Source: a virus. From it: DNA of 64,000 bases. A program made the position numbers and the translations under genes. The notes beneath the pieces are model-generated. The model worked only from the letters and a program-made list of their open reading frames with translations. It had not been told where the DNA came from and searched no databases. The stretch lies in IMG/VR virus record IMGVR_UViG_3300027733_000030, positions 1 to 64,000 of that record, one strand, 5' to 3'. Of this stretch, positions 1-23,598 are shown in pieces. Position 1 is the stretch's first letter, and every line of letters begins with the position of its first letter.

Positions 1-47
1 AGAGCTCATCGTTTTAGGAGCATCTATAATTTTTTTAATAAATAATT

Positions 48-674
48 TCATATTATAATTCCATTCTTTCTTCTATATTCATCTTTTAGCCTAATTATTT
101 CTTGCTTGTGTTGCATTCCCACCGTAAAGAACCAGTGTTCTGGTTTTGTGAAATGAAAAAATATCATTTCTACTTCATTCTTAGCTGGATCTGGAAATTT
201 ATTACGCCAATGATATTGGTCTTCCCCATAATACACCGCAGCTTGATTGGGTTCAAGGATCAATTCTTTTCCTTCAACATATATAGGCCATTGGGTCTTA
301 TAGGACATACACATATCAATGGTAAATGTGCAGGCATTGTCGTCTATGTGGTGCGGTAGATTCGCCCTAAATCCCTTATAGGATACCCATAAAGTATAGC
401 TAGATTGGATATCTTCTCCAAAAATATTGCGAGCCTTTGGCAATAAAGTTTTTGCGGCGTCTTCCAGGATAGGATAACCCATATCTTTATCTAGAGTATT
501 TACATGATGCCTACCTAAAATTGGTTCATATGATAAAATATTATTATCTTTAATATCTGATAATGAATTTTTTAAATAAGAAAAATATTCTGGGCTAAAA
601 ACTTCATCCATAATAAAAGCTTCTGGACGTAGATTTAAAGTTCTTCCAGTTTTGTTATCAAAATATGTTTCCAT
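48..674 (-). CDS. 2OG-Fe(II) oxygenase-like protein
   Basis: HxD motif (LPHHIDDNAC) and distal His (DQYHWR) in a DSBH-like pattern; neighbours are oxygenases. Confidence 0.65.
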   Translation of the reverse strand: METYFDNKTGRTLNLRPEAFIMDEVFSPEYFSYLKNSLSDIKDNNILSYEPILGRHHVNTLDKDMGYPILEDAAKTLLPKARNIFGEDIQSSYTLWVSYKGFRANLPHHIDDNACTFTIDMCMSYKTQWPIYVEGKELILEPNQAAVYYGEDQYHWRNKFPDPAKNEVEMIFFHFTKPEHWFFTVGMQHKQEIIRLKDEYRRKNGIII

Positions 675-681
675 AATATTT

Positions 682-1377
682 TTATTTTTCTTGTGGCATT
701 GGTGTAGAGGAAATAATTATTTCTTTATTTTCGTCCTGCATTGTAGTATTGATTATAAATGTACTGATTATCCATTTGTCATCAGAAATTGGAACACAAC
801 CTTGATGTGGGTGAGTCCAGTGGGCTGGGAATAAAGATATAGATCCAGCTTTAGCTGGAACCATTACACTGTGTTCACGAAAATATGTTTCTCCACCTAT
901 TTCTACATCATTTAGATAAATAACTGCACCTAGGACGCGATCACGAGCACCGTCATGGCCCATTCCACCATCTATATGCTCTCGATAAAATCCAATACCT
1001 CTTTTATATTCTTGAACTCTAAATCCAGTATCTCGTATATTATCCCATTCCCATAGGGACTTAAATTGTTCTCGATAATATTCTATACATTGAAAAAGAT
1101 TTTGCACAATAGCTTGTTCGTATATACTAAGGGGATTAAGAGGAACATTGTTCGCTAGTAAATTATCACAAGACAAACCAGTGTCCATGCTATTTTTTAC
1201 AGACGGATTAATGCCACCTAGAGTAGGACCAGGAGAAAATAATTGAGAGTAATACTTCTTAAATTGACTTATGGAATCAGAGCATATTGATTTATCAATA
1301 ATATTTTCTGCCACCATTATTGCGCCACTTTTTCCAGCAGGCCAATAAAAATTAGTATTACTCATCAAATTCTCCAA
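682..1377 (-). CDS. prolyl-4-hydroxylase-like 2OG-Fe(II) oxygenase
   Basis: FYREHID (HxD), VIYLNDVEIGGETYF, HPHQG, KWIISTF. Confidence 0.85.
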   Translation of the reverse strand: MENLMSNTNFYWPAGKSGAIMVAENIIDKSICSDSISQFKKYYSQLFSPGPTLGGINPSVKNSMDTGLSCDNLLANNVPLNPLSIYEQAIVQNLFQCIEYYREQFKSLWEWDNIRDTGFRVQEYKRGIGFYREHIDGGMGHDGARDRVLGAVIYLNDVEIGGETYFREHSVMVPAKAGSISLFPAHWTHPHQGCVPISDDKWIISTFIINTTMQDENKEIIISSTPMPQEK

Positions 1378-1380
1378 ATT

Positions 1381-1617
1381 TTAAAGTGTTAAAAAAGTTT
1401 CATATACATCTAAAACATCACGAAGATGACGTTCCATACTATTCTTCCATGTATCTGAATTAGATAATGGAGTCCATAAAAATTTTCCATCAACTAATTC
1501 TAGTGTCTCTGGATTTATCCCCGCAGTTATTGCGGCAGTATAAAGTTCTAGTTCTAAATTTTTTCTAGCAGATTGTTTGATTAATCTTTTTTGATTTTCT
1601 GATAATATGAGTTCCAT
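1381..1617 (-). CDS. small helical protein, paralog of 5575..5823 and 4565..4834
   Basis: 78 aa; LELELYTAAITAGINPETLE aligns with LKEQLWMTLIDAGLTPENLD. Confidence 0.7.
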   Translation of the reverse strand: MELILSENQKRLIKQSARKNLELELYTAAITAGINPETLELVDGKFLWTPLSNSDTWKNSMERHLRDVLDVYETFLTL

Positions 1618-1629
1618 TATATCTCCCTG

Positions 1630-2442
1630 TTATTTTGATCTAAAAATTTTTTGAAAGAATGATTTATTTTCAGTTTCTATAGAATTATCTACTTCACGCT
1701 GCATTTTTTTATATTTACTCTTTTGATTACGTGGCATGAACGGCCCACCAAATCCTCTATGATTCAACATATGATAAGTTGATTCATCGCCCCAAAGTAT
1801 TTCTGTCGATTTACTTCTTTCAAAAGGAATAACGTGCCAGATAGGTCTACCTATTTCTAACTCAAAAGGTTGATCAGTTAATATATTCATGACCATATTT
1901 GCATGATGATAGTAATCAGTATGGACTATGGCTGGCAACATTGTATAATTTGGATTTGGATCCCAAAGTGGAGGAAGAAAAAGACATGACCATCCTGGGG
2001 CTGTTTTAATTAACCAGGGATTTATAACTTTAATATAGTTAGCTTTTTCTATTTTTCTCACTTTTGTAACAGGACACTCTCCTGTCTGCCCATAGTTAAA
2101 GCCCTCTATGCCAAAGTCGCCCCTATTATGTGCTAGATCAAATTGAGTTTCCCAGCGAGTACGATCCAATGATGGCCTAAACATTAACTTAGCCCACAAA
2201 GGTATTGTAAATCCTACTGAAAGATAATCTGATGTACCAGAGCAGCGCTTTAAACTTCCCTCCTCACCACTCAAGGCTTTCCACCAATCCGGCCAATTGC
2301 CAAGATTTTCATAAGGAATGCATGAGTCATCCATGAGAAGTGCTGACTCGGGGGTTAACAGTACTTGACCTTTTTTTAATTTTGGAATATCATTAAAAGT
2401 TTTTGCACTAACTATTTGCAACTTCTGCGAGCGCTTCTGCAT
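1630..2442 (-). CDS. conserved phage hypothetical protein of oxygenase/halogenase clusters
   Basis: 270-aa ORF with FTIPLW, INPWLIKTAPGWSCLFLPP, LPAIVHTDYY motifs that I recall from proteins beside phage 2OG oxygenases (unverified); start uncertain. Confidence 0.55.
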   Translation of the reverse strand: MQKRSQKLQIVSAKTFNDIPKLKKGQVLLTPESALLMDDSCIPYENLGNWPDWWKALSGEEGSLKRCSGTSDYLSVGFTIPLWAKLMFRPSLDRTRWETQFDLAHNRGDFGIEGFNYGQTGECPVTKVRKIEKANYIKVINPWLIKTAPGWSCLFLPPLWDPNPNYTMLPAIVHTDYYHHANMVMNILTDQPFELEIGRPIWHVIPFERSKSTEILWGDESTYHMLNHRGFGGPFMPRNQKSKYKKMQREVDNSIETENKSFFQKIFRSK

Positions 2443-3883
2443 GATCTACCAATCTTTGTGTAACTAATTGTTTAGTAAAATTCGTTGTATATTCTAACAC
2501 ATCTTTGCGTGAATTGTATGCGTCAAGTTGAATTGAAGCCATTTGCGGATTAAGAACACCTTGCCCTTGAGCAACATGCCATAAGTGCGCTGCTCCAAAA
2601 AGTTCATAATTAGTAGATGGAATATCGGAAATTTCAGGACCACGAACATTCCATAATTGAAGCAGATGTTGCAAAAGTTCTGGCCGATCTGCTTTTTGCT
2701 GGGCTTTCCACATTTCTGTATCATTTCTATCTGAAACATAATGAAGGGAAATCATACAGAGAATATTATTCATCATCGAGTCCATAATTCGATGATACTC
2801 TTTAATTCCATATGTACGATTTTTCTCAAACGTTGGAAGGTAAGAACATATTAATCGAGCTTGTTGAATAGAAGTAGAAATAGATGTAGCCTCAAGTGGC
2901 TCAACAAAAGCTGCGGCTAAACCCACAGCAATGCAGTTATTCTTCCACGTTTCCTTGAAGTACCCTGCCTTAAAGTTAATTACTTTTGCCGGAACAACTT
3001 CGAAACCATGAACTTGAGAAGCCTCCGCTATAGCTTGATCTACAGTACAAAAATCAGAAGAGAATACATATCCATTACCCCGTCTTTTTTGTGTAGGTAT
3101 TTCCCACATCCAACCATTCTTAAGAGCACGGGCTCTAGTATATGGCCTTATTTGTCCAGAAGGATCTGATTCAGTTGGGAATGCAATCGCGGTGTCACAA
3201 GGAAGATATTTTCTATAATCTACAAAAGTTTGATCAGCTATTTTACTAAGAATTTTTCTATTAAATCCTGTGGCGTCTACAAAAAAGTCACCTGAAATTT
3301 CTTTATTTGATTCAGATAAGATAATTGACTCTATAAACCCATCTTGGTCAAGATTGACATCGATAACTTCATCGTCAATAAATACTATGCCTTTATTTTT
3401 TGAGAATTTAACTAAGTACTCATTTAATTTAAAGGTATCAAAATGATATTGATTAGTACCAAAATGAGTTTTTTCACCGTGGTCAATTATTTTATTTTCT
3501 ACCAATCCACGCCAAGAATAAGTATTAGTAAGTAGTCTATTGTTTTCTAAAGCACTAGAGTAACCAGCCCAAAACGTCCCTGCGGTTGGACCTATATCTC
3601 CTACGCTATGAAAATAGTCTGGAGTATGATTTGTCCAATTTTCATATCTAATTCCATATTTATGCGTAATATCAACTTCTTTAATCATGGTATGAACGTC
3701 TATTCCTACCAGCTCCTGGAACATTCTCCAATGTTCAGTAGAGCCCTCACCAACACCTATGATACCCTGTTTACTAGAAGAAACTATTATTACATTATAG
3801 TCTTTGAAAAAAGCTTTAATAATTAAAGCGGTTACCAATCCAGCTGTGCCAGATCCAACTATGACAATTTTTTTTTGATTCAT
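2408..3883 (-). CDS. flavin-dependent halogenase, tryptophan halogenase (PrnA-like) family
   Basis: GSGTAG FAD motif, GVGEG, THKYGI (catalytic Lys position), GWMWEIP (WxWxIP), FVEPLEATSI. Confidence 0.92.
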   Translation of the reverse strand: MNQKKIVIVGSGTAGLVTALIIKAFFKDYNVIIVSSSKQGIIGVGEGSTEHWRMFQELVGIDVHTMIKEVDITHKYGIRYENWTNHTPDYFHSVGDIGPTAGTFWAGYSSALENNRLLTNTYSWRGLVENKIIDHGEKTHFGTNQYHFDTFKLNEYLVKFSKNKGIVFIDDEVIDVNLDQDGFIESIILSESNKEISGDFFVDATGFNRKILSKIADQTFVDYRKYLPCDTAIAFPTESDPSGQIRPYTRARALKNGWMWEIPTQKRRGNGYVFSSDFCTVDQAIAEASQVHGFEVVPAKVINFKAGYFKETWKNNCIAVGLAAAFVEPLEATSISTSIQQARLICSYLPTFEKNRTYGIKEYHRIMDSMMNNILCMISLHYVSDRNDTEMWKAQQKADRPELLQHLLQLWNVRGPEISDIPSTNYELFGAAHLWHVAQGQGVLNPQMASIQLDAYNSRKDVLEYTTNFTKQLVTQRLVDHAEALAEVANS

Positions 3884-4578
3884 AATTTAACAACGTAGAT
3901 TATAGAAGTACCGACAGGAATATGAAAAACGTATTTATCACTATCATTACATAGTCTTTCAAGATATTCATAGAAAGGATGCATATCTTTTGTGGAGTAT
4001 ACTGAACCAAAATCGCTGAACGAAGATACTATCATGCATCCGCCTGGAGATATATGGTCCCAAATATTATCAATAAGCTGTGTGTCATGACTAAATAATT
4101 CAAAGTCAATGACCGCTAAATCATAATCATCGTCAAAGTTTTTTGCTTCAATGTCTTGAAAGGAAATAACTTTCGAATCATCTAACTGCTCACCTAAGTA
4201 ATTCTCTAAGTAATAAGTATTAATTATATTAATGAAATGAGAATTAGGAACAAGATTCTTTAGAGTTGAACCCATTGCAAAACTGATCATTCCAGAAAAT
4301 ACTTTATTTGGCTTTGACAGGTGTATTGCTAATTCAATGAACGATCTACCAATAATTTCTATATCAAATCCAGGACTATCTGAGTTTGTTAAAAGGCCAA
4401 AATAATTTAATTGCAGAGACATACCAAGAGCAGCTCTGCTTCTATCTGCTCCAGTAGACTGTTCTTCTAATAAGAAAGAATTATAGTTATCACACATACT
4501 CTGTTTATCTATTTGTGTAGATAAATTATTGGATAATATATTTGCTATTTTCAATACATCATAATTAGACATTTTCAA
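3880..4578 (-). CDS. class I SAM-dependent methyltransferase-like protein (divergent)
   Basis: C-terminal YDLAVID...IWDHISPGGCMIV pattern; glycine-rich motif I not clear. Confidence 0.45.
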   Translation of the reverse strand: MKMSNYDVLKIANILSNNLSTQIDKQSMCDNYNSFLLEEQSTGADRSRAALGMSLQLNYFGLLTNSDSPGFDIEIIGRSFIELAIHLSKPNKVFSGMISFAMGSTLKNLVPNSHFINIINTYYLENYLGEQLDDSKVISFQDIEAKNFDDDYDLAVIDFELFSHDTQLIDNIWDHISPGGCMIVSSFSDFGSVYSTKDMHPFYEYLERLCNDSDKYVFHIPVGTSIIYVVKL

Positions 4579-4834
4579 TTCTCCATTTTAAACTTTTATA
4601 CATATACCAAAAGCGACGTATTGACAATTGATTCAATCTTAATTTGGCGTATCGACTTCTATCAATCGGAGATAATTCATCACATTCGGAGGATCCAAAA
4701 GTATTGGAACATGAGTTCATTAAATCATTTAAAGTTAAATTATCTATGTCTTCTATAGACATTCCTATAGTTTCACACAAAGTGCCTAATTGTTGAACGA
4801 CGTACTCATAATCTTCCGTTAATCTATAGCCCAT
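4565..4834 (-). CDS. small acidic protein, distant paralog of 5575..5823
   Basis: 89 aa, overlaps both neighbours; VVQQLGTLCETIGMSIEDID aligns with the shared motif. Confidence 0.65.
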   Translation of the reverse strand: MGYRLTEDYEYVVQQLGTLCETIGMSIEDIDNLTLNDLMNSCSNTFGSSECDELSPIDRSRYAKLRLNQLSIRRFWYMYKSLKWRIENV

Positions 4835-4988
4835 CCATATCTCCTATGTTTTCATTTCCAAAAATAATTGGACTGTCTAACATTGCGCACCATAAAATAT
4901 TTTCATCTTTTATCATTCTTGAATTCTCAGTGTCAAAAATTATATCTTGTAGATTTTCTACATTTGGATATTCATTTTCTGGATTCAT
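4824..4988 (-). CDS. 54-aa acidic peptide (not in ORF track)
   Basis: MNPENEYPNVENLQDIIFDTENSRMIKDENILWCAMLDSPIIFGNENIGDMDGL; ATGA overlap with the upstream oxygenase stop; fills the gap exactly. Confidence 0.6.
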   Translation of the reverse strand: MNPENEYPNVENLQDIIFDTENSRMIKDENILWCAMLDSPIIFGNENIGDMDGL

Positions 4989-5575
4989 CTAAACCACGTC
5001 ACTAAAGAATATTTAATTGAATTATCATTAGAACCAACGGGTTCTGCTATATGTATATATGGGAAATTAGAAGGGAACATTATAACTGTTCCGGCCTTGG
5101 GCTTAATCGATACATTAAATCTTGGGAAAGTTAAATTTCCACCCGAGTAACCATCATTTAAAAAGGCAACTAAACTTAACACTCTATTGTTTGTATTGAA
5201 ATGATCATGGTGAGCTGTATACTCTGCACCACCGCCATATTTTAATACTCTATATCCTTCATCAGCTTCAAGATCTAATTCAAAATTATTTCTATAATCC
5301 CAAACAATTGGATCTATCTTAGCCCAAAGATCATTCCACTCTTTAGCTAGAGGCTTAACTCTTTCAATTTGAATATCTCCTGCCCCTAAAGGGGTCAGTT
5401 CACATCCTAGCGAAGTGCGTTTATCAGATACTTCACCGCTTCCCACAGTCGAGCGTTGCCAATTAAGATAACCCCATTGTTGACTGCATTCTTCTTCTAA
5501 TAATTTTAAAAAAATAGAAGCGTTAAATGCATTATCGTATTGAGCAATACAGGTACCATGTTCAGTAAATTTCAT
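4985..5575 (-). CDS. prolyl-4-hydroxylase-like 2OG-Fe(II) oxygenase
   Basis: YTAHHD, SLVAFLNDGYSGGNLTF, FPSNFPYIH, KYSLVTWF. Confidence 0.88.
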   Translation of the reverse strand: MKFTEHGTCIAQYDNAFNASIFLKLLEEECSQQWGYLNWQRSTVGSGEVSDKRTSLGCELTPLGAGDIQIERVKPLAKEWNDLWAKIDPIVWDYRNNFELDLEADEGYRVLKYGGGAEYTAHHDHFNTNNRVLSLVAFLNDGYSGGNLTFPRFNVSIKPKAGTVIMFPSNFPYIHIAEPVGSNDNSIKYSLVTWFR

Positions 5576-5823
5576 TATGCAGGCAGCTCCGACTTAATTT
5601 GCTCTGTGTTATTAATCTGATCTATCATTAGAATAACTTGAGCTCTAAGATGCGCGTTCTGATCAGAAATTTCTGTATCTGGATCAAAATTATCCATGTC
5701 AAGATTTTCCGGTGTGAGCCCTGCATCAATAAGCGTCATCCACAATTGTTCTTTGAGGGATGTAATTCTTACTGAAAGGATTTGATTTTTACGTTCATTA
5801 GTTATTGAATTAAAAAATGTCAT
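5575..5823 (-). CDS. small helical protein, first gene of the tailoring operon
   Basis: 82 aa; AAGGAG RBS upstream; paralog of 1381..1617. Confidence 0.75.
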   Translation of the reverse strand: MTFFNSITNERKNQILSVRITSLKEQLWMTLIDAGLTPENLDMDNFDPDTEISDQNAHLRAQVILMIDQINNTEQIKSELPA

Positions 5824-5848
5824 TTTTTCTCCTTAATTGTGATTGTAT

Positions 5849-5857
5849 ATTATACCA
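5849..5857 (-). promoter_or_regulatory. extended -10 sigma70-type promoter (TGGTATAAT)
   Basis: TGnTATAAT in the intergenic gap, about 25 nt upstream of the 5823 start. Confidence 0.6.
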
Positions 5858-5865
5858 TATTTTTT

Positions 5866-7728
5866 TTAAATATCTATTAACTTAGAATAATTAGAATGGC
5901 CAATTTGATTTGTCGCATTAAAGTTGCCCGGATTTCGAGTAACAAGAATTATACCACCAGTTGAACCAGTAACTCCTGTGCCACCTGGATTAGCTGCTCC
6001 AGCTGCTCCAGCTGCTCCACCAGTGCCTCCAGTATAGTTGGCATTTGTGGCATTGTGGTTTGGCGCTGCTGCTCTATTGCTAGTAACGGCGCCTGTTGAA
6101 ACGTTTAAAGTAGCAGCTGTATGCGGGTGTGATCCAGCATTATAGCCAGCGGGATGCGGATTCCCGCTATGAGGAGCCGTACCCGTACTGCCAGCTGGGT
6201 GAGGAGTACTGCCTGCCGGATGAGGATGATGTCCAGCATGATGATGATTTCCTCCCGTATGTCCTAGTGTATTTGCTGTATGGGGCACGCCTGCAGGTCC
6301 AGCATTTGTAGCTGGGTGTGGACCTGTTGGACTATGGTGATGGCCGTGACCAGCATTAGTGTAAACATGACCATTATGATGATCGTTTCTTCCTGAATTA
6401 GGGAATGCTCCCGCAGCGTGAGAATACGGATGATTGCCGGCGTTGTGATTGCCCGCATTATGAGTGGCAGCAGTGTGTCCAGAGCCGGGGTTGTGGTTTC
6501 CATTTTTTGAGTTGATAACATTACCATTATGGTTAGTATTCCCGCCAGTTCCAGTTCCACCATGTGTCCAGTGCTGCGCGGGCACATGTGCTGCATTTGA
6601 TGTTGAGTTATGGCCTGATACACCAGGGCCATTCACTGGGTGATGATGATGTCCAGTGCCTGCATTATGGGCAGATCCTCCATTATGGGCAATTATATAC
6701 GTAATATATGGGCCGGTACGGTGAGTTACTGCATTATGACCATGGGATCCATGAGCGTGGTTTTCTGAAGTTGGATGATTTCCAGCAGCTATGTGTAGCA
6801 CTGCGTTATGAGGATTAGCGTGCGGTCCCCCATCTGGATGGGGGTGCGATCCTGCAGGGTGCGGATGGGCTCCAGCGTTATGACTAGCTGCGTATGGGGT
6901 TCCTGTAGTAGCCGTAACTACGACGCCGCCCGTAGTATGGGGATAATTTCCTAAAGTGTGGTATGCAGTTATGCTAGGAGCAGAGTTTCCTGCGGTACCA
7001 GAGTTACCCTGTGTAGCTGGGTTGCCTGCGGATCCAGCAGCTCCATAACTCACTAAAGTTCCAGAGCCTGCAATTGTTTTAGCGAAAATAATAACCAATC
7101 CACCACCAAGACCACCAGCGCCACCAGTTCCAGCTGTTGCCGGATTACCAGCGGTACTAGCATTACCTGCACCACCAGCTTGACCTGTCAAGGCTCCAGG
7201 AAAGTTTCCGGCGTTTCCAGCGAATGGACCCGTTGCAGCTGAAGTAATGCTTCCAGCACTTCCTTGGGCCCCTAATGAACCTGCACCAATTTTGGTAATA
7301 GTTCCCGCGCCAGTAATAAACCATCCAGATACTGAATCGTCTAAGTCATAAAGATCCGTTACGGATATAGTATCTGTACTCGTACCCCAAGCTTTAGATG
7401 GATTGAGGGAAGTTTGTCTTCCGGCAATTGTTCCACTTCCATCTGTTACAGAGTGAGTAACTGCGGCGGGCATACCAACTGTTCCGTTATTTGTGAAAGT
7501 TCCATTGACAAAAATGCGGAATCCATTTGTAAATAATGTAACACCACTATTAACCGTAAGATTAGTACAGTATATATCTTTTACTAATTTATAAACGTTT
7601 GAAGTTGGAGCTAATGAAATTACTGTAGCTGTGCCGTCAAATGTAGCTGCGCTATCAGTACCTTCTCCAAAAATAGCGTCTCCGCCTTCTCTCTGAACAA
7701 TAGGTCTGTTTGTTCTTTTAATCGCCAT
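5866..7728 (-). CDS. Gly-rich virion/fibre protein with a long His-rich insertion
   Basis: 620 aa; about 54 His counted in roughly 285 aa; HNAG and HPHPAG repeats; N-terminal domain paralogous to 7730..8548. Confidence 0.75.
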   Translation of the reverse strand: MAIKRTNRPIVQREGGDAIFGEGTDSAATFDGTATVISLAPTSNVYKLVKDIYCTNLTVNSGVTLFTNGFRIFVNGTFTNNGTVGMPAAVTHSVTDGSGTIAGRQTSLNPSKAWGTSTDTISVTDLYDLDDSVSGWFITGAGTITKIGAGSLGAQGSAGSITSAATGPFAGNAGNFPGALTGQAGGAGNASTAGNPATAGTGGAGGLGGGLVIIFAKTIAGSGTLVSYGAAGSAGNPATQGNSGTAGNSAPSITAYHTLGNYPHTTGGVVVTATTGTPYAASHNAGAHPHPAGSHPHPDGGPHANPHNAVLHIAAGNHPTSENHAHGSHGHNAVTHRTGPYITYIIAHNGGSAHNAGTGHHHHPVNGPGVSGHNSTSNAAHVPAQHWTHGGTGTGGNTNHNGNVINSKNGNHNPGSGHTAATHNAGNHNAGNHPYSHAAGAFPNSGRNDHHNGHVYTNAGHGHHHSPTGPHPATNAGPAGVPHTANTLGHTGGNHHHAGHHPHPAGSTPHPAGSTGTAPHSGNPHPAGYNAGSHPHTAATLNVSTGAVTSNRAAAPNHNATNANYTGGTGGAAGAAGAANPGGTGVTGSTGGIILVTRNPGNFNATNQIGHSNYSKLIDI

Positions 7729-7729
7729 T

Positions 7730-8548
7730 TTATACTACCTGTGAATAAATAACAGTACCCGCACTACAACCAGTTCCACCAGTAACATCGGTTGATACGC
7801 CAGAAGTCAGAACTCCAGCAGATGAAATAATAATTATTACTCCACCTCCACCGCCGCCAGAACCAGAAGTCCCAGGCGCTTTAATTGTAGCTGCTGCTGT
7901 AGTGCTAGAAAGACCAATGTATCGCGCCGCAAGAATCACTACTCCTCCGCCTAGACCTACTGTGCCCCCTGCGCCACCTCTCAATGGCGTAGGGGTTAAA
8001 GATGTACCAGTAATAGAGTAACCCTTTATTGCCTGAAAGGGTTGATAGTAATAATTAGTTCCTCCCGTAGCTGCAGTGGGTGCTACTGCTGAGTAAGACG
8101 CACTGGAACCACCAAGACTGTGGGCTACTGGCGATGTTGAAGCGTTATTTATAGCTCCCCCCTGCTGAATAGAACCAGTAGTGCCAAATCCTGTTGTATG
8201 ACCTATTACAGATAGATTTCCAAGCGTTAAAACATTTTGAACAAAAATTCTGTACCCTGCGGGATTTAGTCTAATGTTATCATCAATTATTAAATTAAGT
8301 GTAAATATATCCTGCGTCATAGTAAATACGCTGGCACTATATGTTAGCCCTAGTGAAGTTGTAGCTGATGAATATGTTCCCGCAGCTCCATTTGTTGTAT
8401 TCAACGTTGCCGTCCCGTGCGCAGCAGAACCATAAACTGGATCTGGAGCATCAAGAAAGCCAGTCAAGTTAGAGTTCGCTTTTGACGTTGTTGATGGTCC
8501 AGAGGCGACGCTGAGACCACCTCCATTCGTAAAAATGAACTTTCCCAT
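7730..8548 (-). CDS. Gly-rich virion/fibre protein
   Basis: 272 aa; QDIFTLNLIIDDNIRLNPAGYRIFV matches KDIYCTNLTVNSGVTLFTNGFRIFV of the neighbour; GGGVVILAA motif. Confidence 0.7.
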   Translation of the reverse strand: MGKFIFTNGGGLSVASGPSTTSKANSNLTGFLDAPDPVYGSAAHGTATLNTTNGAAGTYSSATTSLGLTYSASVFTMTQDIFTLNLIIDDNIRLNPAGYRIFVQNVLTLGNLSVIGHTTGFGTTGSIQQGGAINNASTSPVAHSLGGSSASYSAVAPTAATGGTNYYYQPFQAIKGYSITGTSLTPTPLRGGAGGTVGLGGGVVILAARYIGLSSTTAAATIKAPGTSGSGGGGGGVIIIISSAGVLTSGVSTDVTGGTGCSAGTVIYSQVV

Positions 8549-8549
8549 T

Positions 8550-8927
8550 TTAGTATCCTACGTATCCATTAATCATATAGTTAACTGACGTTGAACTTGC
8601 AAGTCCACGTATGTTGTCTGAATACGTATAGTTTGGCGTAGCCGCACTACCGTTATTATTATACATTACAACGGAAGTCGATAAAGTAACTGTTTCGTTA
8701 GCTGCAAGTGATAATGAGTTAACAAAAATATGCGAACTTGCTACAGTTACTCCATATGGTTTCAAATACAAGGTTACTGTTTGAGTAGAGGCAGATGTAT
8801 TGCACAGTATTATTTCTTTAATTACAACGGTGGTTACTTGTCCCGCGTTATATGGGGCAGTATATAGGTCTGCGGCTGACGTGCTAAATGCCGATGGACC
8901 AACAAGTCTAGTTGGTGTCATAGCCAT
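8550..8927 (-). CDS. small beta-rich virion structural protein
   Basis: 125 aa, LYTAP...VIKEIILCNTS pattern typical of small phage tail-associated proteins; tight operon. Confidence 0.6.
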   Translation of the reverse strand: MAMTPTRLVGPSAFSTSAADLYTAPYNAGQVTTVVIKEIILCNTSASTQTVTLYLKPYGVTVASSHIFVNSLSLAANETVTLSTSVVMYNNNGSAATPNYTYSDNIRGLASSTSVNYMINGYVGY

Positions 8928-9115
8928 TAGATGACCTCCATTATACTTCGTACTTCAGCAGTTCCCAAAGGAACTGATGCTTGTTTCAATGCTGATGTGG
9001 CAGAAGTTTGATTAGCGGTATCCACCGCATCTCGTGCAGTTTCTTGGGGTGCAGTGTAGTTAGCTGTTGTTTCCGTATTGGCGGAACCATCATATGTATA
9101 TAACACTCTTGTCAT
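8927..9115 (-). CDS. hypothetical protein
   Basis: 62 aa, AGGAG RBS, TAATG overlap with the downstream gene. Confidence 0.6.
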   Translation of the reverse strand: MTRVLYTYDGSANTETTANYTAPQETARDAVDTANQTSATSALKQASVPLGTAEVRSIMEVI

Positions 9116-9127
9116 TCTTTTCTCCTA

Positions 9128-12100
9128 TTAGTTCGTATATCCGTAGAGTTTCCACGTTGCATTGATATTGGCGGGACTGGCGCCAAGTCTGAAAGTAGAA
9201 AGTGTAAATCCGTTATATGCAGTTGCCACGGAGTGGCGCACTGCACCAGTGTATGTTCCAAAATAAGAACTATTTTGAACTGTTATATTAGTGTTATCCG
9301 CAATATTTGGGCGACAGATATCCATTGCAATACTACTATCACCACTATTAGATGCTGTTCCAATAATGCCGAATGTAGCATTTTCTAAACCATAAGAATC
9401 TGTAGTGCCACTCCATAGCATTCCACTCAAAGCGCTGTAATAACCGGTTACTGAATCTGTTGAAGTTGCTCGTAAATTTATACCAATCAAATACAACAAA
9501 GAAGAATCAGTTGTTATATTTGATAATACTAATTTATAATTATCATAAGTTGAACTGAATACACTACTTATTGATGCCGTTGTTGCACCAGAGAATGTAC
9601 CACTAGATATGTAAACAAGACCAAGATCAGCGGTTGTAGCGACAGTGCCTGCCTTGTTCGGGAGTGTCAACGTTCTGTCTGCCGTAAGTGTCGTTGGTGT
9701 TAAAGTTACTTCGTAAGTACCAGTGCCGCCTGCACGCCCGGTAAGAGCAATTCCGTCTTGTGTTGCTGCTGCACGAACTGTTGTTGTACCTACTACATCT
9801 AACTTTGTTGCTGGTGTCGTAGTTCCGATACCAGTATTGCCACTGGCATCGATAACAAATGGTGTTGTGTCACCACCCGTTGCATCTTCAACTATAAAAG
9901 AATAACCTGCGCCACCGTTAAGAACACGCATAGCACCCCAACCGTTACTGGCAGAGTGGAGGACATCAAGCGTGTAAGAAGGCGATGATGTCATAATACC
10001 AACTTTTTGATTGGTATTACTAGCCGATATAACGCCATTATCTCCTAAGATTGTGTCGCCCGATACACGAAAATTACTGTCAATTTGGGTATCTCCAGCA
10101 ACTTGTAAAGTATATATCGGGGCATCTGTACCGATACCAACACGATTTGTTGTTGGGTCAACTACCAAAGTGTTGGTATCTACCGTTAAGTCGCCCGTGA
10201 CTGTCAGCGAACTTAAAGTACCTACAGAAGTGATACCTGTTTGAGCAGCATTGACCGACAGTGTGTTGCCAGACTTGGATAGTCCAGTACCAGCAGTGAT
10301 TTGACCAGCGCCAGAAAACTGTGTAAAAGAAAGTGATGTTGTGCCAAGTGTGATTGGGTCGTTGGTAGTGAGCACATAGCCCATATCGGCACTGACTGTT
10401 CCCTCAGAAACAAAGACATACATTCCGCTTGTAACTTTTGCTGATGTATTTGCATCTGTAGACCTTGATGCTACTCCAGATGCTACGACAACATAGATAC
10501 CATTTTCTGAGGCTGTTGTCTGGTTTTTGAGCAGAACACGGTCACCAGTTGCTACAACTACACCATCAATTGTTGAGGCGTTTGTAAGGGCAGAAGCAAC
10601 GGTGATGTTTACTGTTGAAGCGACTCTAACCGAATCTTTAATGTCAAGGCTCTGCGTGATGGCATCGGCGTAGGCTTTAGTGACAGCATCAGTTGAGTTT
10701 GTCGGAGTTGGGACTGTTACGGTCCCAGTAAAAGTAGGTGAAGCCAACTTTGCATAACCTTGACCTACTACATAGGCGGTAGTCGCAATTTGTGTCGTAT
10801 TGGTATCTACAGCAGCAGTAGTGCTTAAAGGAACACCAGTAAAAGTAGGACTAGCAATGTTTGCTTTTAAGCCATCATTACCGTTTAACTTTTGGAATGC
10901 CTGTAAAATACTGTCTGTAGCAGCAACGGTTCCAGCACCTGAAACATAGCCCGTTAGCACTTTTGCAATAACAGGAGCGTTAGTTAAGGTCGTAGCATTA
11001 CCGACACTTGTGACGTCCCCCGTAAGGTTTGCGTTAGTAACTACTGTTGCTGCGTTACCAACGGAAGTCACTCCGCCAGTCAAGTTGGCATTAGTGGTTA
11101 CGGTCGCAGCATTACCAGTCGTGTTTTGATTCCAAGTAGGAACAGTTCCTGTTAAACCAGTATAAGCAACATTGGTAGCAGTAGAGGCATTGCCTGTTAA
11201 TGGACCAGAAAATCCTGCTGCCGTTAGTGTTGTCCCATCGAACGTCAGGTTTGCGCTACCTGCTGCAGCATTTGTTCCGTCTTTGTAAACAACTTGGTTA
11301 GCGGAACCAGCGACTGGACCAGTGGCACCTTGTGGTCCTTGACTGCCTGTTGCGCCTTGAGATCCAGTCGCACCTTGTGGTCCTTGCGTTCCTTGAGGGC
11401 CAGTCGAGCCTTGCGAGCCAGTCGTACCCGTCGCTCCTTGAGGTCCGGTTGCACCTTGTGGACCAGTCGTGCCCGTAGCTCCTTGAGGGCCGGTTGCACC
11501 TTGCGAGCCTGTTGTACCTTGGGGTCCAGCAGCTCCTTGAGATCCAGTTGCACCCTGCGGTCCTTGGGCGCCTGTGCTTCCCTGCGGGCCCACATTTCCT
11601 TGGGCACCTGTTGAACCTTGTGGTCCTGTAGCTCCTTGAGGACCTGTTGCTCCTTGAGTTCCTGTGGCACCTTGGGCTCCAACGGATCCTTGCGGGCCTT
11701 GGGGGCCAGTAGAGCCTTGAGGACCCGTGTCTCCTTGGGGACCAGCAGCACCTTGGGATCCTGTTGCACCTTGGGGGCCAGCAACTCCTTGGGGTCCTTG
11801 TGGTCCAGTTGCACCTTGGGAGCCAGTAGCGCCTTGGGAGCCTGTTGCTCCCTGAGATCCAACATCACCTTGGGGGCCTGTTGCTCCCTGAGATCCTGTT
11901 GCTCCCTGGGCTCCAACAGATCCCTGTGGACCTTGAGGGCCAGTAGTACCCTGTGGTCCTATTGAACCCTGAGGGCCCGTTGAACCTTGCGATCCAGTGT
12001 CTCCCGTGGTGCCAGTAGCTCCCTGTGCGCCAGTGGCTCCTTGAGCTCCAGTTGCTCCCTGAGGGCCCGTTGCACCCTGCGAACCAGTTGCACCTTGTGC

Positions 12101-13696
12101 GCCTGTATTACCAGTATCACCTTTGTCGCCAGTACGAACAAATGTAATAATTATATCTTGACCATTTGCCCATGATGGAGAAGAGCCAGTCAGATAAGTA
12201 ACTGGAACTTTATAATATGAGGATACATAAGTGTGTGCTCCACTTATTGCGTAATAAGCAAAGACCGCTGAATTCCCAACTTCTTCTACCCTAAAGTGTC
12301 CCTTAATTGCGGAACTTGAATCATCAATTGTTTCAAGATATGCAGATACATCTACAGAGTTACTGTCAACTGGGTCTATGTATAAGAAAGTTGCAGTTGA
12401 AAAAGTATTATTAAACTTTAAGTTTGTTGTGCCGGGATCACTATCTGCTGTACTTGTTAAATAATTATATGAAAAAGTTGCTCCGCCAAAAGAGCCCGTT
12501 GCTCCCTGTGCCCCAGTGCTACCCTGAGATCCTGTGGCACCTTGAACTCCCTGTGGACCAACGGATCCCTGAGCTCCCGCATCCCCCTGTGGCCCAGTTG
12601 CCCCCTGGGGACCTGTAGATCCCTGAGATCCTGTTGAGCCTTGGGGGCCTGTTGCACCTTGCGCTCCTTGTGAGCCAACTGCACCTTGAGGACCGACGTC
12701 TCCCTGCGGTCCAGTTGAGCCCTGAGATCCAGTCGATCCCTGAGACCCTGTGGCCCCTTGTGAACCAGTGGCTCCTTGAGATCCAGCAACTCCCTGAGGA
12801 CCTATATCTCCTTGAGCTCCCGTAGATCCTTGGGCTCCAGTTGAGCCTTGAGCTCCTGTTGCACCCTGAGATCCAACACTGCCCTGAGGGCCCTGAGAAC
12901 CTGTTGCCCCTTGTGAGCCAGTGGCACCTTGGGGACCAACGTCACCTTGAGGTCCACTGCTACCAACTGACCCTTGGCTGCCCTGCGCTCCAGTAGCACC
13001 CTGAGGTCCCGTTGCACCTTGGGTGCCAGCTGAACCTTGTGGGCCCTGAGATCCAGTAGCTCCTGTTGCCCCTTGGGGGCCAGTAGAACCTTGTGGGCCT
13101 ATATCTCCTTGAGCGCCAGTGGAACCTGTGGCGCCTTGGGGACCAGTAGCCCCCTGAGAACCTGTGGCTCCTTGAGAGCCCGTAGCTCCTTGGGAGCCTG
13201 TGGCTCCTTGAGGGCCTTGTGGACCTTGTACACCAGCAAGAAGACTGGTGCCAACACCATTGCCTCCAGTACTTATGTCAAGATAAAAACCTCTTGCATT
13301 TCCGCCTTGCTCAAAGAAACGAAGTCTGTTTTGCCAAACGTCAATAGTGACTCCACCAGTAAGGGTGGTATTGGTGACTGCTTTCTTTAGGAAAATTTCA
13401 CCACCCTCATCACCAGATGAGTTATTGGAGATGAGGTTGCCTCCAGCAGCTATATTGCCAGAAACTGAGACGGCGGATGGTAAGCTTACAACAAAAGAGC
13501 CAGAGGTTTCAGTTACAGTAATTTGATCTGTAGTGCCAGTAATTCCAGTAATTAATTTAGCGCCAACAATAGTATTAGATGCGTTCTTATAGAATAACTT
13601 ACCATCTGCGTAGTTTAATGCCAGTTCGCCATGAGTCATAGAAACAGGTACAGACGTAGTCGTACCTGAATTCTTAACTAAAATAGTATTAGCCAT
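9128..13696 (-). CDS. collagen-like long tail fibre protein
   Basis: 1522 aa; N-terminal [15 protein letters not shown] fibre-attachment-type motif, two Gly-X-Y tracts, Thr/Gly-rich phage fibre modules. Confidence 0.88.
11312..12130 (-). repeat. collagen Gly-X-Y tract 2 (about 91 triplets)
   Basis: [12 protein letters not shown] triplets in the translation. Confidence 0.95.
12488..13234 (-). repeat. collagen Gly-X-Y tract 1 (about 83 triplets)
   Basis: [12 protein letters not shown] triplets in the translation. Confidence 0.95.
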
Positions 13697-13737
13697 GTAA
13701 AAACCTCTATAGGAATATAAAATAAGCGCTTATGTTA

Positions 13738-13744
13738 ATAGTAA
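13738..13744 (-). promoter_or_regulatory. candidate phage late-promoter motif TTACTAT
   Basis: intergenic, 41 nt upstream of the tail fibre ATG; recurs before other late genes. Confidence 0.5.
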
Positions 13745-13750
13745 CATTTT

Positions 13751-14548
13751 TTATTCTGTTGTGCCAGAACAAGATTCTAAATCTTCAAAACGTTTAGTAA
13801 TCAAATTATCATATTTAGCTGCGATTTCTGCAACGTTGTGTTGAATCAAGGCGTTGCGTGTACGCTGTGCAGTGAAGGGACCAATGTGTTGCTTGTAAAT
13901 CATTTTGGGAATATAATTAAATTTAGTAATTAAAAAAGTTCTAACAACTAAATCAAAATCATCTGCTACAGTAAAACGAGGATCATGCCCATTTAATTCC
14001 CTATAGACACTAGCTCGCCATGCACGTACATGATTAGGTGCCGAAACGATATGTCTAATAGTAGTGGGATTGACTTCTGGAGCACGCATTGTCCAGACTT
14101 GATGCTCTTCGTCCCAGTAATCTGAACCGTAACCAAAAGCCCAACCGTCTGGATATCTTCCAGATTGACCATCAGGTAAAATTTCACACCAATCAGAATA
14201 AACAAATCCAACTTCTGGATCAGTAAATGCGTCAGCAATTAACTGTAGTGCGTCGGGCATTAATTCATCATCGTGATCTAACTCTACTAGAATGTCACCT
14301 TCGGCTGCCATCATGCACTGACGTTTAACTCTGCCAATACTTCCGGAATGGACGTGTGATTTATGCGCCATCAGTCTGAATCTTTCATCAGATGCTAAAC
14401 CATAAATTTGACTCCATGTATCATTATTAGTAGAGTCGTCCCAAACGACCCACTCCCAATCAGTATAAGTCTGAGATTTAAGACTTGCCCAAGTTCTAGC
14501 TAGAATACTTGGATCAGTATTATAAGTTGGTGTACAAATAGAAATCAT
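13751..14548 (-). CDS. glycosyltransferase family 2
   Basis: ISICTPTYN, VVWDDS, ELDHDD (DxD), DDFDL. Confidence 0.9.
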   Translation of the reverse strand: MISICTPTYNTDPSILARTWASLKSQTYTDWEWVVWDDSTNNDTWSQIYGLASDERFRLMAHKSHVHSGSIGRVKRQCMMAAEGDILVELDHDDELMPDALQLIADAFTDPEVGFVYSDWCEILPDGQSGRYPDGWAFGYGSDYWDEEHQVWTMRAPEVNPTTIRHIVSAPNHVRAWRASVYRELNGHDPRFTVADDFDLVVRTFLITKFNYIPKMIYKQHIGPFTAQRTRNALIQHNVAEIAAKYDNLITKRFEDLESCSGTTE

Positions 14549-14581
14549 TTAAACCTCAATGTCAATAAAATATATTTATAT

Positions 14582-14609
14582 ATTATCACAATAATTTCTA
14601 GTGTGTCAA
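14582..14609 (-). promoter_or_regulatory. sigma70-type promoter TTGACA-N16-GATAAT
   Basis: consensus -35 and TG-extended -10 upstream of the GT2 gene. Confidence 0.6.
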
Positions 14610-14672
14610 CAATCTACACTCTTATTTAGGGACTTTAGTCTTACTATTTTATCGAGGATGGGAGTCTTTATC

Positions 14673-17219: not shown

Positions 17220-17233
17220 CAGGGAGACTAATA

Positions 17234-17422
17234 ATGAAAAAATTTATAACTAAATTAACATCTGCAATTTACGATCAGGCCTGGACAATAGCCGGAACTG
17301 TATTAGTTCTTATCACTTTGTCTGGAGACATACAGTCATGGGGAATTAAGATTAGTGTTATCACACTATCTGTCGTTCTTCTCGGAGCTGTCATTAAAAA
17401 GGAGTCAGAAGACTCTGATTGA
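17234..17422 (+). CDS. small two-TM membrane protein
   Basis: 62 aa, two hydrophobic segments, GGAG RBS. Confidence 0.7.
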   Translation: MKKFITKLTSAIYDQAWTIAGTVLVLITLSGDIQSWGIKISVITLSVVLLGAVIKKESEDSD

Positions 17423-17423
17423 A

Positions 17424-17798
17424 TTAACCTTTAATTAGCTCTTCAGGAATAATCCACAATTTACAAATAGCTTCGTTTTCGATTTGGCCAGCAACCAATT
17501 CGCAGCCACCACCACCTAAAAAGAAAACACAATTCCCGCAAACTAATCCTTCTTCTTTGAAAGGGTTTGCTTCAGCTGGCGCATAGTGTGCTCCATCTGC
17601 TTTTGATGTTTGTTCGAATTTACCATTGGTCTCAACAATATTCTCATACATATCATACATCATTTTTTGACGATCATTTAATTTATTGTGAGGATCATCC
17701 GTATCTTCGGAATCATCTTTAGGCATATCATTTTCTGGCTGATTCTTATTATCTGGAGAGCTGTATTCTGATAGCCAATAATTATTCATTATTTTCAT
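17424..17798 (-). CDS. HiPIP-like Cys4 protein
   Basis: CGNCVFFLGGGGCELVAGQIENEAICKLW = C-x2-C-x8-C-x12-C. Confidence 0.6.
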   Translation of the reverse strand: MKIMNNYWLSEYSSPDNKNQPENDMPKDDSEDTDDPHNKLNDRQKMMYDMYENIVETNGKFEQTSKADGAHYAPAEANPFKEEGLVCGNCVFFLGGGGCELVAGQIENEAICKLWIIPEELIKG

Positions 17799-18114
17799 CT
17801 TTCATGGAACTTTTTACTACGCCGTCTGGAATTGCAGCTAATCTACATAATCCTTCTTCTTCTACGGTTTGAGCGACAATTTTACATACGCCCTGACCTT
17901 GATAAAAAGCGCAGTTTTCACACTTGACCCCAATGCCAGAGTCTTCGTTTTCTTCGGCTGAGCGATATCCTACCCAGATTCCATTACCATCACTATTTGC
18001 AAGCTTACCATATCTTGAAACTATGCCCATCAGAGCCCGTACATACTCCTGTTCCGCTGGAGCCATTTTGTGCTCTTCTTGTTCCAGAAATTCAGCTAAC
18101 CAATAAATTGACAT
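17782..18114 (-). CDS. HiPIP-like Cys4 protein (paralog)
   Basis: CENCAFYQGQGVCKIVAQTVEEEGLCRL, identical Cys spacing. Confidence 0.6.
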   Translation of the reverse strand: MSIYWLAEFLEQEEHKMAPAEQEYVRALMGIVSRYGKLANSDGNGIWVGYRSAEENEDSGIGVKCENCAFYQGQGVCKIVAQTVEEEGLCRLAAIPDGVVKSSMKDENNE

Positions 18115-19619: not shown

Positions 19620-20159
19620 TTATAGCACAGGTTTACGGGCATCGACTTTAAGCCAGCCCCATTCATCTCCACGCTTAACATCCAATATCTCAAAACCCAT
19701 TGTTTCAAAGTCGTCTTGTAACATTCTGTGCGTTAAGCCTACAAAGTGAAAGTCAAAAGGATTGAGTTGTTCAGCAAAAAAGATTTGCTGCATTCTTCTG
19801 TCTCCATCAAGCGAGTCCATGGTAATCAATTGATTACAGGCTAGAATAAAGTCTGGGACTTCTATTCTGATCATGCCACCTGGCTTAACGATTCGACACC
19901 ATTCAGCTAATACTGATTGATATTCTTTCCAAGGAAAATGTTCTAGGCATTCTGAGTTATAAACTATGTCAGCGTAGTTATCCGGAAGATCGATTTTGCG
20001 AGCATCACATACAACGTCTACTGGAACAGTTCGTTTATTAACATGATCATATAGTGGAGTTGGATCTATGTCAATGTGCATCCAGTCTGGGCCAAGATAT
20101 GTTCTAGTTCCTATGACTACCTTAATGCCGTCGCCTTGCGGAATAGTTTCTAGTCTCAT
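19620..20159 (-). CDS. class I SAM-dependent methyltransferase
   Basis: CLEHF, EWCRIVKPGGMIRIEVPD; start at MRLET (TGATG overlap). Confidence 0.8.
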   Translation of the reverse strand: MRLETIPQGDGIKVVIGTRTYLGPDWMHIDIDPTPLYDHVNKRTVPVDVVCDARKIDLPDNYADIVYNSECLEHFPWKEYQSVLAEWCRIVKPGGMIRIEVPDFILACNQLITMDSLDGDRRMQQIFFAEQLNPFDFHFVGLTHRMLQDDFETMGFEILDVKRGDEWGWLKVDARKPVL

Positions 20160-22609: not shown

Positions 22610-22633
22610 ATTTCCTTCTTTAAGAATGTTATT

Positions 22634-22727
22634 TGGCGGAGAGAGTGGGATTTGAACCCACGGATGTATTTTACCACATCGACATCTTAGCAGGATGTTC
22701 CATTCAACCGTACTCTGGCACCTCTCC
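22634..22727 (-). tRNA. tRNA-Ser(GCT) with encoded CCA
   Basis: acceptor GGAGAGG/TCTCTCC, anticodon stem ACATC-CTGCTAA-GATGT, long variable arm, GGTTCAAATCC T-loop, 3' GCCA. Confidence 0.93.
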
Positions 22728-22735
22728 TAAATTTA

Positions 22736-23594: not shown

Positions 23595-23598
23595 TATA

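Follow-up and report, generated by a model that had tools for sequence, protein, structure and literature searches.

The 64,000-nucleotide stretch of viral DNA analysed here (IMG/VR record IMGVR_UViG_3300027733_000030, positions 1 to 64,000; hereafter, the window) codes for P0001, a protein that carries a His-rich and nearly uncharged tract inserted between the last rungs of a predicted beta-helix. Across the family of this protein, the density of His and the lack of fixed charge are conserved, and not the sequence, the length or the HxH register of the insert, and the gene is persistently accompanied by a flavin-dependent halogenase and a prolyl 4-hydroxylase (P4H)-like oxygenase. The best explanation, to which a probability of about one half is assigned, is that the insert is a flexible surface loop, anchored at both ends and responsive to metal ions or pH, on a protein of the tail module, and that it is perhaps modified by the neighbouring enzyme cassette. 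The gene, the parts of its product and its tandem paralogue are as follows.

5866..7728, minus strand: P0001, beta-helix protein with a His-rich insertion, 620 amino acids (aa).
6964..7728, minus strand: N-terminal part of the scaffold (aa 1-255), with Gly-rich rungs, the last of which is GGLGGGLVIIFAKTIAGSG; homologous to P0111.
6094..6963, minus strand: His-rich insertion (aa 256-545), of low complexity (His/Gly/Ala/Asn/Thr/Pro), with H-[PN]-[AS]-G units and an end repeat of about 40 aa.
5866..6093, minus strand: C-terminal rungs (aa 546-620 and the stop codon), GSTGGIILVTRN ... SNYSKLIDI, which close the same beta-helix.
7730..8548, minus strand: P0111, insert-less tandem paralogue of 272 aa, separated from P0001 by a 1-nt gap.

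P0001 contains 57 His in total, 54 of which fall in residues 255-545 (18.6% of these 291 aa) and 53 in residues 260-540, while the charged residues of the 255-545 segment are six in all (2 Asp, 1 Glu, 1 Lys, and 2 Arg). Gly accounts for 16.5% of the insert, Tyr for about 3%, and Asp plus Glu for about 1%, and Asn and Pro are also present. The enrichment in His is far beyond chance, because the adjacent collagen-repeat fibre P0002 has 5 His in 1522 aa. P0001 has no visible signal peptide and no family match in Pfam (E up to 10), PHROGs, or NCBIfam. The open reading frame (ORF) at 5866-7728 is a genuine coding sequence and its insert is under purifying selection: in the comparison with the 95%-identical relative of locus L014, the ratio of non-synonymous to synonymous substitution rates (dN/dS) is 0.175 in the insert, 0.354 in the N-terminal flank, and 0.25 overall, 13 non-synonymous changes stand against 23 synonymous ones in the insert, and all 57 His of the whole protein are retained. 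The His codons are mixed (37 CAT and 20 CAC), and the gene has a duplicated end module as well as short tandem repeats at the DNA level.

The search for homologues, carried out on 5.8 billion proteins, yields about 23 full-length homologues of 513-629 aa with 42-95% identity to P0001, along with many shorter or longer relatives that share the same N- and C-terminal flanks, and 276 tblastn-confirmed relatives are present in IMG/VR. The members of the family (P0003-P0073, IMG/VR loci L016-L094) carry the N-domain motifs TNGF[RK][VI]FV and GGGxV[VIL][IV]..A[KN], both present in P0001, followed by a His-rich middle and a C-terminal GG-hhhh-TR rung, an arrangement that P0001 fits. Insert length among relatives, proposed as a check of the first, model-made reading of this sequence (hereafter, the original prediction), ranges from about 95 to about 750 aa while the composition is kept; specifically, close relatives have inserts of 214-315 aa, the 386-aa forms have inserts of about 95 aa with 18-24 His, and the longest insert, in a 1066-aa form, reaches about 750 aa with 108 His. 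In close relatives, the insert consists of 16-22% His, 10-18% Gly, 10-20% Asn, and 8-17% Pro, with Asp, Glu, Lys, and Arg each at most 2%, Trp 0-1%, and Tyr 0-4%. The flanks are 50-93% identical, whereas the non-His positions of the insert are 19-35% identical, with 22-38% gap columns beyond the closest group. His is retained at 43-87% in aligned relatives and is kept about twice as often as the other residues of the aligned inserts (0.87 vs 0.59 and 0.57 vs 0.29), a statistic that is somewhat inflated by the tendency of aligners to favour His-His columns. Distant lineages display other His patterns, namely NHHHHT[QR]T tandem repeats in L038 and an HxH-rich, partly charged insert in L092, and both the L038 central repeats and the L092 insert hold little Pro.

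The extreme of the family is P0114 (L038:10633-12537, plus strand), with 100 His in 635 aa and a central tandem of NHHHHT[QR]T / NHHHV[QR] that reaches up to 45 His per 100 aa and resembles a natural poly-His tag. Moreover, four loci (L053, L065, L074, and L044) contain two His-containing ORFs near the halogenase; in L053, one has 716 aa and 32 His, the other 543 aa and 55 His. The His-rich gene can therefore be duplicated.

The spacing of His within the insert was compared, in 13 family members, with the expectation from composition-preserving shuffles. The distance of two residues, which corresponds to HxH, is depleted (84 observed vs 126.8 expected, z -4.8), while the distances of 5, 7, and 9 are enriched; thus, HxH is rejected as an enriched motif. 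The recurring unit is instead H-[P/N]-[A/S]-G, found as HPAG 53 times, HNAG 35 times, and HPSG 30 times, and the commonest local pattern is the vicinity of Pro to His, with Pro at 2.07 times the expectation after His and 1.76 times before it. Residues 276-325 and 491-545 of P0001 match each other in the direct orientation (z 6.6) and not in the reversed one (z 1.6), so that the ends of the insert form a direct repeat of about 40 residues and their mirror order is rejected. The original prediction, made on the letters alone, had described an insertion with about 54 His in roughly 285 aa and very few Asp, Glu, Lys, or Arg, all of which agrees with the counts reported above, and had seen recurring HNAG, HPHPAG, and HxH motifs in a rough mirror order. 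P0001 does contain HNAG four times and HPHPAG twice, in addition to 11 overlapping H.H; the recurrence of HxH and the mirror order, on the other hand, do not withstand the comparison with shuffles and with the reversed alignment.

The position of the tract within the fold was derived from an AF2 monomer model of P0001, built from a 52-sequence alignment. The model is confident for residues 20-255 and 560-620, with predicted local distance difference test (pLDDT) values of 75-95 in the N-terminal part and 74-94 at residues 560-600; conversely, residues 260-555 have a pLDDT of 32-44, contain no DSSP elements of secondary structure, and are modelled as disordered. VIA, an exhaustive structural comparison, aligns the residues of the N- and C-terminal flanks jointly to small single-chain beta-helices, in alignments that span residues 21 to 620. 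The best match of P0001 is the bactofilin 6ria (Z 6.8, root-mean-square deviation (rmsd) 2.6, 82 residues), followed at Z 5-6.7 by a Caldicellulosiruptor adhesin domain and by two-partner secretion (TPS) and autotransporter helices, and the AF2 model of P0111 returns the same list of folds, headed by 6ria at Z 6.9. Considering both paralogues, the matches include 6ria (Z 6.8/6.9), 4wa0 (Z 6.7), and 2n3d (Z 6.4/6.7), with Z 6.7-6.9, rmsd 2.4-2.8, and 82-104 residues for the structural matches across the two, values that are middling (Z < 8), may reflect a common arrangement, and speak for the fold class and not for a function. Foldseek finds no match in the PDB at E 0.001 or better, no Pfam model, including those of bactofilin, autotransporter, and Beta_helix, matches P0001 or P0111 at E up to 10, and the 'collagen-like' matches in BFVD (rmsd > 20 Å) are rejected as meaningless alignments of a disordered low-complexity chain. 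Within these limits, the scaffold of P0001 is modelled as a small single-chain right-handed beta-helix, in the sense of a fold class, shared with P0111, to which it is homologous (hhalign probability 99.0%, E 2.3e-18).

The insert-less proteins reveal where the tract entered this scaffold. In P0111 the rung 'GLGGGVVILAARYIG' is followed about 20 residues later by 'GGGGGGVIIIISSAG', and in the His-free relatives P0083 and P0080 the two Gly-rich rungs are adjacent, while the equivalent rungs of P0001 (aa 200-228 and 586-600) are parted by the His-rich tract; the C-terminal rungs are conserved in all full-length homologues. As originally proposed, the tract is genuinely inserted, its place being between the last rungs of the beta-helix, and since rungs of one domain lie on either side of it, the chain must exit and re-enter that domain. 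The out-and-back course that had been envisaged for the chain is thereby supported by the joint alignment of both flanks to single beta-helices, in the form of a loop rather than of a demonstrated fibre.

Downstream of P0001, the window contains a compact set of enzyme genes.

4985..5575, minus strand: 2-oxoglutarate (2OG)-Fe(II) oxygenase of the P4H type, 196 aa (PF13640, E 1.6e-14).
2408..3883, minus strand: flavin-dependent (Trp-type) halogenase, 491 aa (PF04820, E 1.1e-103).
1630..2442, minus strand: DUF6065-like protein, 270 aa (phrog_7084), which overlaps the end of the halogenase gene and is a constant halogenase partner.
682..1377, minus strand: second 2OG-Fe(II) oxygenase, 231 aa (PF13640, E 9.8e-10), present in most related loci.

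The nearest solved structure of the oxygenase at 4985..5575 is the Bacillus anthracis P4H 5hv0 (E 2.2e-10), whereas the halogenase matches 5hy5 (E 3.3e-63) and the cyanophage enzyme VirX1 (6qgm, E 1.8e-34) in the PDB and shares 29-37% identity with cyanophage halogenases; DUF6065 is annotated in 11-20% of the members of the Atlas clusters that match the 270-aa protein. The linkage of these genes to the His-rich gene was followed in 88 loci (64 distinct proteins analysed), collected by metagenome look-ups and from IMG/VR and grouped into 15 N-domain clusters at >= 50% identity. Wherever the flank suffices, in all 15 clusters, a halogenase is found no more than about 5 kb from the His-rich gene, and so are the P4H-like oxygenase and the DUF6065-like protein in 15 lineages. 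The halogenase is mostly located 0.02-2.4 kb downstream of the His-rich gene and the P4H-like oxygenase 19-773 bp downstream in most loci, while in a few lineages the cassette is upstream. The linkage is kept despite this move and despite the absence of a collagen fibre: in L006 and L007 the neighbouring fibres have no collagen repeats and the enzymes are kept, and in L011 no large fibre gene precedes the trio formed by a small gene of about 120 aa, the insert-less paralogue, and the His-rich gene, which sits inside a larger enzyme cluster. Conversely, two His-free relatives of the scaffold lie in ordinary structural modules with none of the cassette enzymes nearby. The association with the halogenase and the hydroxylases, which the original prediction had read as a possible enzyme-target relation, is thus strongly conserved as gene linkage. 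The collagen fibre was also considered as the constant partner of the P4H-like oxygenase and is rejected, because the loci without a Gly-X-Y fibre (L006, L007, and L011) keep the enzymes.

The cluster of L011 (L011:1-9000, ENA contig k141_1181158) includes TauD, a PF11397 N-acetylglucosamine (GlcNAc)-transferase, a carbamoyltransferase, two more 2OG oxygenases, and a P450. PF11397 is the family of the Skp1 hydroxyproline GlcNAc-transferase, and the gene is also found in L045 and L048.

Upstream of P0001, and between it and the oxygenase, lie the following genes.

9128..13696, minus strand: P0002, collagen-repeat tail-fibre protein, 1522 aa (PF01391, E 7e-77; tail-fibre PHROGs), upstream of the trio.
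8550..8927, minus strand: P0112, small partner gene, 125 aa (phrog_20100, unknown function), first of the trio.
5575..5823, minus strand: P0113, acidic protein of 82 aa, between the His-rich gene and the oxygenase, kept in close relatives.

The gene order is constant and comprises a fibre gene, the P0112-type gene, the insert-less paralogue, and the His-rich gene, the paralogue immediately preceding the His-rich gene in almost all related loci; the window (8550-8927, 7730-8548, 5866-7728, then 4985-5575 and 2408-3883) follows the order of its relatives. The His-rich gene is preceded by fibre genes, of the collagen-like or Mtd_N type, and by tail-completion genes, and in one contig the block comes after the tail-completion and Mtd_N genes. 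P0002 contains 175 Gly-X-Y triplets, some relatives of P0001 add a C-terminal Lcl_C lectin-type domain, and the His-free relative P0083 has weak matches to tail-fibre PHROGs. This context supports the assignment of P0001 to the tail-fibre gene module and a tail or adhesin role, and its identity as a virion fibre protein is putative and drawn from this context.

The window is part of the genome of a large uncultured freshwater phage that codes for a DnaE-type polymerase, a primase, a helicase, a ribonucleotide reductase, and virion proteins, and related contigs, up to 200 kb long, were recovered from metagenomes of freshwater lakes. No close cultured relative of this phage was found; megablast of window positions 5000-9000 and 20000-40000 against phages gives no match, and tblastn against 50,697 phage records gives no match for the whole P0001 and, for its N domain, one unannotated 40-kb spring-water contig. 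WhiB-like genes (PF02467) occur in contigs close to the window (L014:19876-20157, minus strand; also L015, L024, and L025), which suggests, by gene content, a putative actinobacterial host, while no WhiB gene lies within the 64-kb window itself. The comparison of window positions 8-17804 with L014 yields nucleotide identities of 97.8% for the halogenase cassette, 96.7% for the His-rich gene, and 80-90% for the collagen fibre and its neighbours; turnover is faster in the fibre than in the cassette. A single large plus-strand gene (14601-17219, 872 aa) occurs in this region of the window, opposite the fibre operon, and codes for a protein with a weak right-handed beta-helix match (PF13229, E 0.0018) and no PHROG family. 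Lastly, a promoter and terminator scan of positions 4800-9400 returns 13 promoter-like sites against 11.1 expected, a number not above chance.

The explanation that best accommodates these data is the loop introduced at the outset. Since the insert is anchored at either end in one and the same folded domain, the tract would be a long, flexible, and exposed out-and-back loop, and since His density and the absence of charge are kept while sequence, length, and register are not, its mode of action is likely the bulk chemistry of imidazole. Such a loop would take up many transition-metal ions (Zn, Ni, Cu, Fe) by chelation, or pass from a neutral to a polycationic state near pH 6, or do both, and may serve the particle as its contact with the host surface or as an adhesive tether, with the adjacent P4H-like oxygenases and flavin halogenase probably acting on P0001. 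The location in the virion, the exposure of the loop, its function with metal ions or pH, and its enzymatic modification are thus putative elements of this explanation, and a number of observations weigh against it. No cultured phage with a P0001 homologue was found in the searches of phage records, the putative binding of metals is read from the composition of the insert, and the middling beta-helix matches (Z < 8) point to a class of fold and not to a function; in addition, the retention of His is overestimated to the extent described above. Common descent or shared late expression could also account for the gene linkage, a single N-domain served to find all loci, and at 40% identity only 5 clusters are left. 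To our knowledge, no flavin halogenase acts on imidazole or histidine, and the insert is nearly devoid of Trp (0-1%) and contains only 0-4% Tyr. Furthermore, the cyanophage S-H38 and the pelagiphage HTVC008M have halogenase/2OG oxygenase pairs without a P0001 homologue, and published analyses interpret the arrays of dioxygenase and halogenase genes in phages as pathways for metabolites or capsules (PMC2938197, PMC7824862).

Overlapping with the responsive loop rather than excluding it, post-translational modification by the co-inherited cassette may be the main role of the tract, which would make it a dedicated substrate: the 2OG oxygenases would hydroxylate Pro, Asn, or His, the halogenase would act on an aromatic or imidazole ring, and hydroxyproline would be glycosylated in some lineages, to give an altered and possibly cross-linked surface material. 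The linkage across the 15 N-domain clusters is universal, and many loci have 17-773 bp between the His-rich gene and the start of the halogenase or the oxygenase; among solved structures, the adjacent oxygenase is closest to a protein prolyl 4-hydroxylase, the insert is 8-17% Pro, with an enrichment beside His, the oxygenase is kept at loci without collagen repeats, the His-free relatives have no cassette, and in L011 the trio is embedded in an enzyme cluster that includes TauD, carbamoyltransferase, P450, and the PF11397 GlcNAc-transferase. The chemistry is, however, a proposal made from gene linkage; halogenation of His by this class of enzymes has no precedent known to us, and the Pro-poor L038 central repeats and L092 insert imply that a Pro-directed enzyme cannot explain every lineage. 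The same pair of enzymes occurs without a P0001-type protein in cyanophages and HTVC008M, and the literature favours small-molecule products for such clusters (PMC2938197, PMC7824862). A dedicated substrate is therefore a tentative alternative, and somewhat more doubtful is its full form, in which the loop is the natural substrate of the halogenase and the P4H-like oxygenases and, once hydroxylated, halogenated, and in some lineages glycosylated, would become a metal-loaded or cross-linked element of the virion surface.

The remaining alternatives are much less probable. His-rich tracts are an established feature of bacterial metallochaperones that serve nickel enzymes (Hpn, HypB, and SlyD type), and with this precedent P0001 might be a non-structural, intracellular metal store or metallochaperone that buffers or delivers Fe(II), Ni, or Zn, for instance to the neighbouring oxygenases. 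Several Fe(II)-dependent oxygenases always adjoin its gene and no signal peptide is visible, but the adhesin-type beta-helix with a tandem paralogue, the lectin-type C-terminal domains of some relatives, the tight abutment to genes that come after fibre genes, and the oxygenase arrays of cyanophages, which do without such a protein, make this improbable. Slightly less credit still goes to a needle of the gp37 type, in which three insert chains would intertwine and coordinate a column of Fe or Zn through the His of each. This would suit the dense His, the tail-fibre neighbourhood, and the return of both insert ends to one domain, as in a hairpin-shaped fibre, and PMC11705849, which cites the structural work, reports seven Fe ions bound via HxH in T4 gp37 and similar motifs in marine phage fibres. 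In P0001, by contrast, HxH spacing is depleted (z -4.8), the insert is not positionally conserved in sequence or length and is predicted to be disordered as an AF2 monomer (pLDDT 32-44), the scaffold is modelled as a single-chain and not a triple beta-helix, and no fibre family, nor a family of any other kind in Pfam, PHROG, or NCBIfam, matches the protein. The interpretation given in the original prediction is hence retained for the out-and-back insertion and the enzyme linkage, and not supported for the metal-stapled needle resembling gp37 and gp12. The least probable alternative is a neutral low-complexity expansion, in which replication slippage would have filled a surface loop and His would be a by-product of a codon repeat. 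The great variation of the insert in length and sequence, the short DNA tandem repeats, and the duplicated end module speak for this origin; nevertheless, it is disfavoured by purifying selection (dN/dS 0.175 and 0/57 His lost against 23 synonymous changes), by the persistence of the His fraction and of the absence of charge in 15 lineages with unrelated motif texts, and by the mixed His codons, which therefore do not derive from one expanded repeat.

Among known systems, P0001 is a member of none, and the nearest phage precedent is the iron needle of gp37 together with the 'Ferrojan horse' idea. According to Bartual et al. 2010, as cited in PMC11705849, seven Fe ions are held by the HxH motifs of gp37 at the tip of the T4 long tail fibre, and the same source presents the idea of metal-bearing phage fibres and HxH-like motifs in those of marine phages. 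P0001 resembles gp37 in its tail-fibre module and in its His, which are obvious candidates for metal ligands. The two proteins have no sequence relation, and searches of P0001 in Pfam (E up to 10), PHROG, and NCBIfam give no homology to the C-terminal domains of gp37 or gp12. Moreover, the predicted single-chain beta-helix of P0001 differs from the intertwined trimer of gp37, HxH is depleted and not conserved in its family, its 54 His lie in a predicted-disordered tract as opposed to 14 per chain at fixed positions, and its insert is hypervariable in sequence and length. Regarding the scaffold, bactofilin- and adhesin-type single-chain beta-helices (6ria, 2n3d, 4wa0, TPS, and autotransporter passengers) are the best matches of both paralogues, although the rungs of P0001 are glycine-rich (GGxGGGhhhh) and none of the matches has a His-rich insertion.

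By mode of action, the nearest analogues may be found outside phages, in the jaw protein Nvjp-1 and in the His-Pro-rich region of histidine-rich glycoprotein. In the vertebrate histidine-rich glycoprotein, this region consists of GHHPH repeats and senses Zn and pH. It shares with P0001 the flanking of His by Pro, and its neutral-to-cationic switch and Zn binding would correspond to the mode proposed for P0001; the likeness is an analogy only, the protein and the organism being unrelated and the pentapeptide repeats regular. Nvjp-1, from the jaw of Nereis virens, is a His-rich, disordered, Zn-binding protein with > 25% His, about 35% Gly, and abundant Tyr and Asp/Glu (PMC9465683), and halogenated Nereis jaw proteins are reported by Birkedal et al. 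2006, as cited there. Both Nvjp-1, whose behaviour is set by Zn and pH, and the phage insert, whose disorder is an AF2 prediction, are His/Gly-rich polypeptides, and the halogenation machinery beside the phage gene echoes the halogenated jaw material. The composition of the insert departs from that of Nvjp-1, with 18.6% His, 16.5% Gly, about 3% Tyr, and about 1% Asp plus Glu, and with the addition of Asn and Pro, and an animal extracellular material without homology to P0001 is set against a loop on a viral beta-helix.

The enzyme cassette has its own counterparts in the dioxygenase-halogenase arrays of Syn9/Syn10-type cyanophages (Iyer et al. 2010, PMC2938197; Iyer et al. 2021, PMC7824862) and in VirX1 (6qgm). 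As in Syn9-type clusters, the window combines in one array a Trp-type flavin halogenase and two distinct 2OG-Fe(II) oxygenases. The cyanophage arrays are read as pathways for secondary metabolites or capsule decoration and no His-rich partner is described for them, whereas the cassette of the window is small and invariably linked to the His-rich beta-helix protein; the loci of S-H38 and HTVC008M differ likewise by having no P0001 homologue. In the cultured pelagimyophage HTVC008M, a 2OG oxygenase and a Trp-halogenase (gp078-gp079, L010:11421-13380) lie between the small and large terminase genes, and four more 2OG oxygenases and a 'ferrochelatase' are found beside the baseplate genes. The Synechococcus phage S-H38 (MW117965.1) contains, between QPB07936 and QPB07937 and 4.4 kb downstream of its halogenase, an unannotated ORF of about 95 aa (L009:17784-18107, plus strand; 108 aa stop-to-stop) that has 28 His and apparently a signal peptide, is charged (HHHHH, HxH, rich in Lys/Arg/Asp), and is unrelated to the P0001 family. 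In the same phage, QPB07914 (L009:6545-7435, plus strand, 296 aa), which is poly-Gly-rich, has GGGGGG runs and ends in ...TMYIRYKT, directly follows the tail-fibre gene, 5 kb upstream of the halogenase; its reverse strand gives a spurious His-rich ORF, and the protein is possibly a remote counterpart of the Gly-rich beta-helix scaffold.

Searches of the literature on His-rich phage receptor-binding proteins and on freshwater phage halogenases tied to fibres returned no paper on this family, in which P0001 stands, by its composition and gene context, as a His-rich and presumably metal-binding element of a phage tail-module protein. Its insert illustrates clearly how selection can maintain the composition of a low-complexity region rather than its sequence. 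In density, a charge-free loop of about 300 residues with 19% His would far surpass every potential metal-binding element so far reported for phage particles; it would broaden the notion of these particles as carriers of bound trace metals, and it bears on the transport of such metals by phages in natural waters. Phage-encoded Trp-type halogenases have been known since 2005 (P-SSM2; PMC1079782) and the structure of one of them, VirX1, is solved (PDB 6qgm), while no paper was found that names the natural substrate of any of them. Because the family always lies beside a halogenase and prolyl-hydroxylase-like enzymes, and never without this cassette in the sampled loci, the loop is a testable candidate for such a substrate, in a concrete and expressible form. 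If the loop is indeed modified by these enzymes, it would be a viral counterpart of the halogenated, Zn-hardened biomaterials of animals, which would be categorically new, and would answer what VirX1-like viral halogenases act on.

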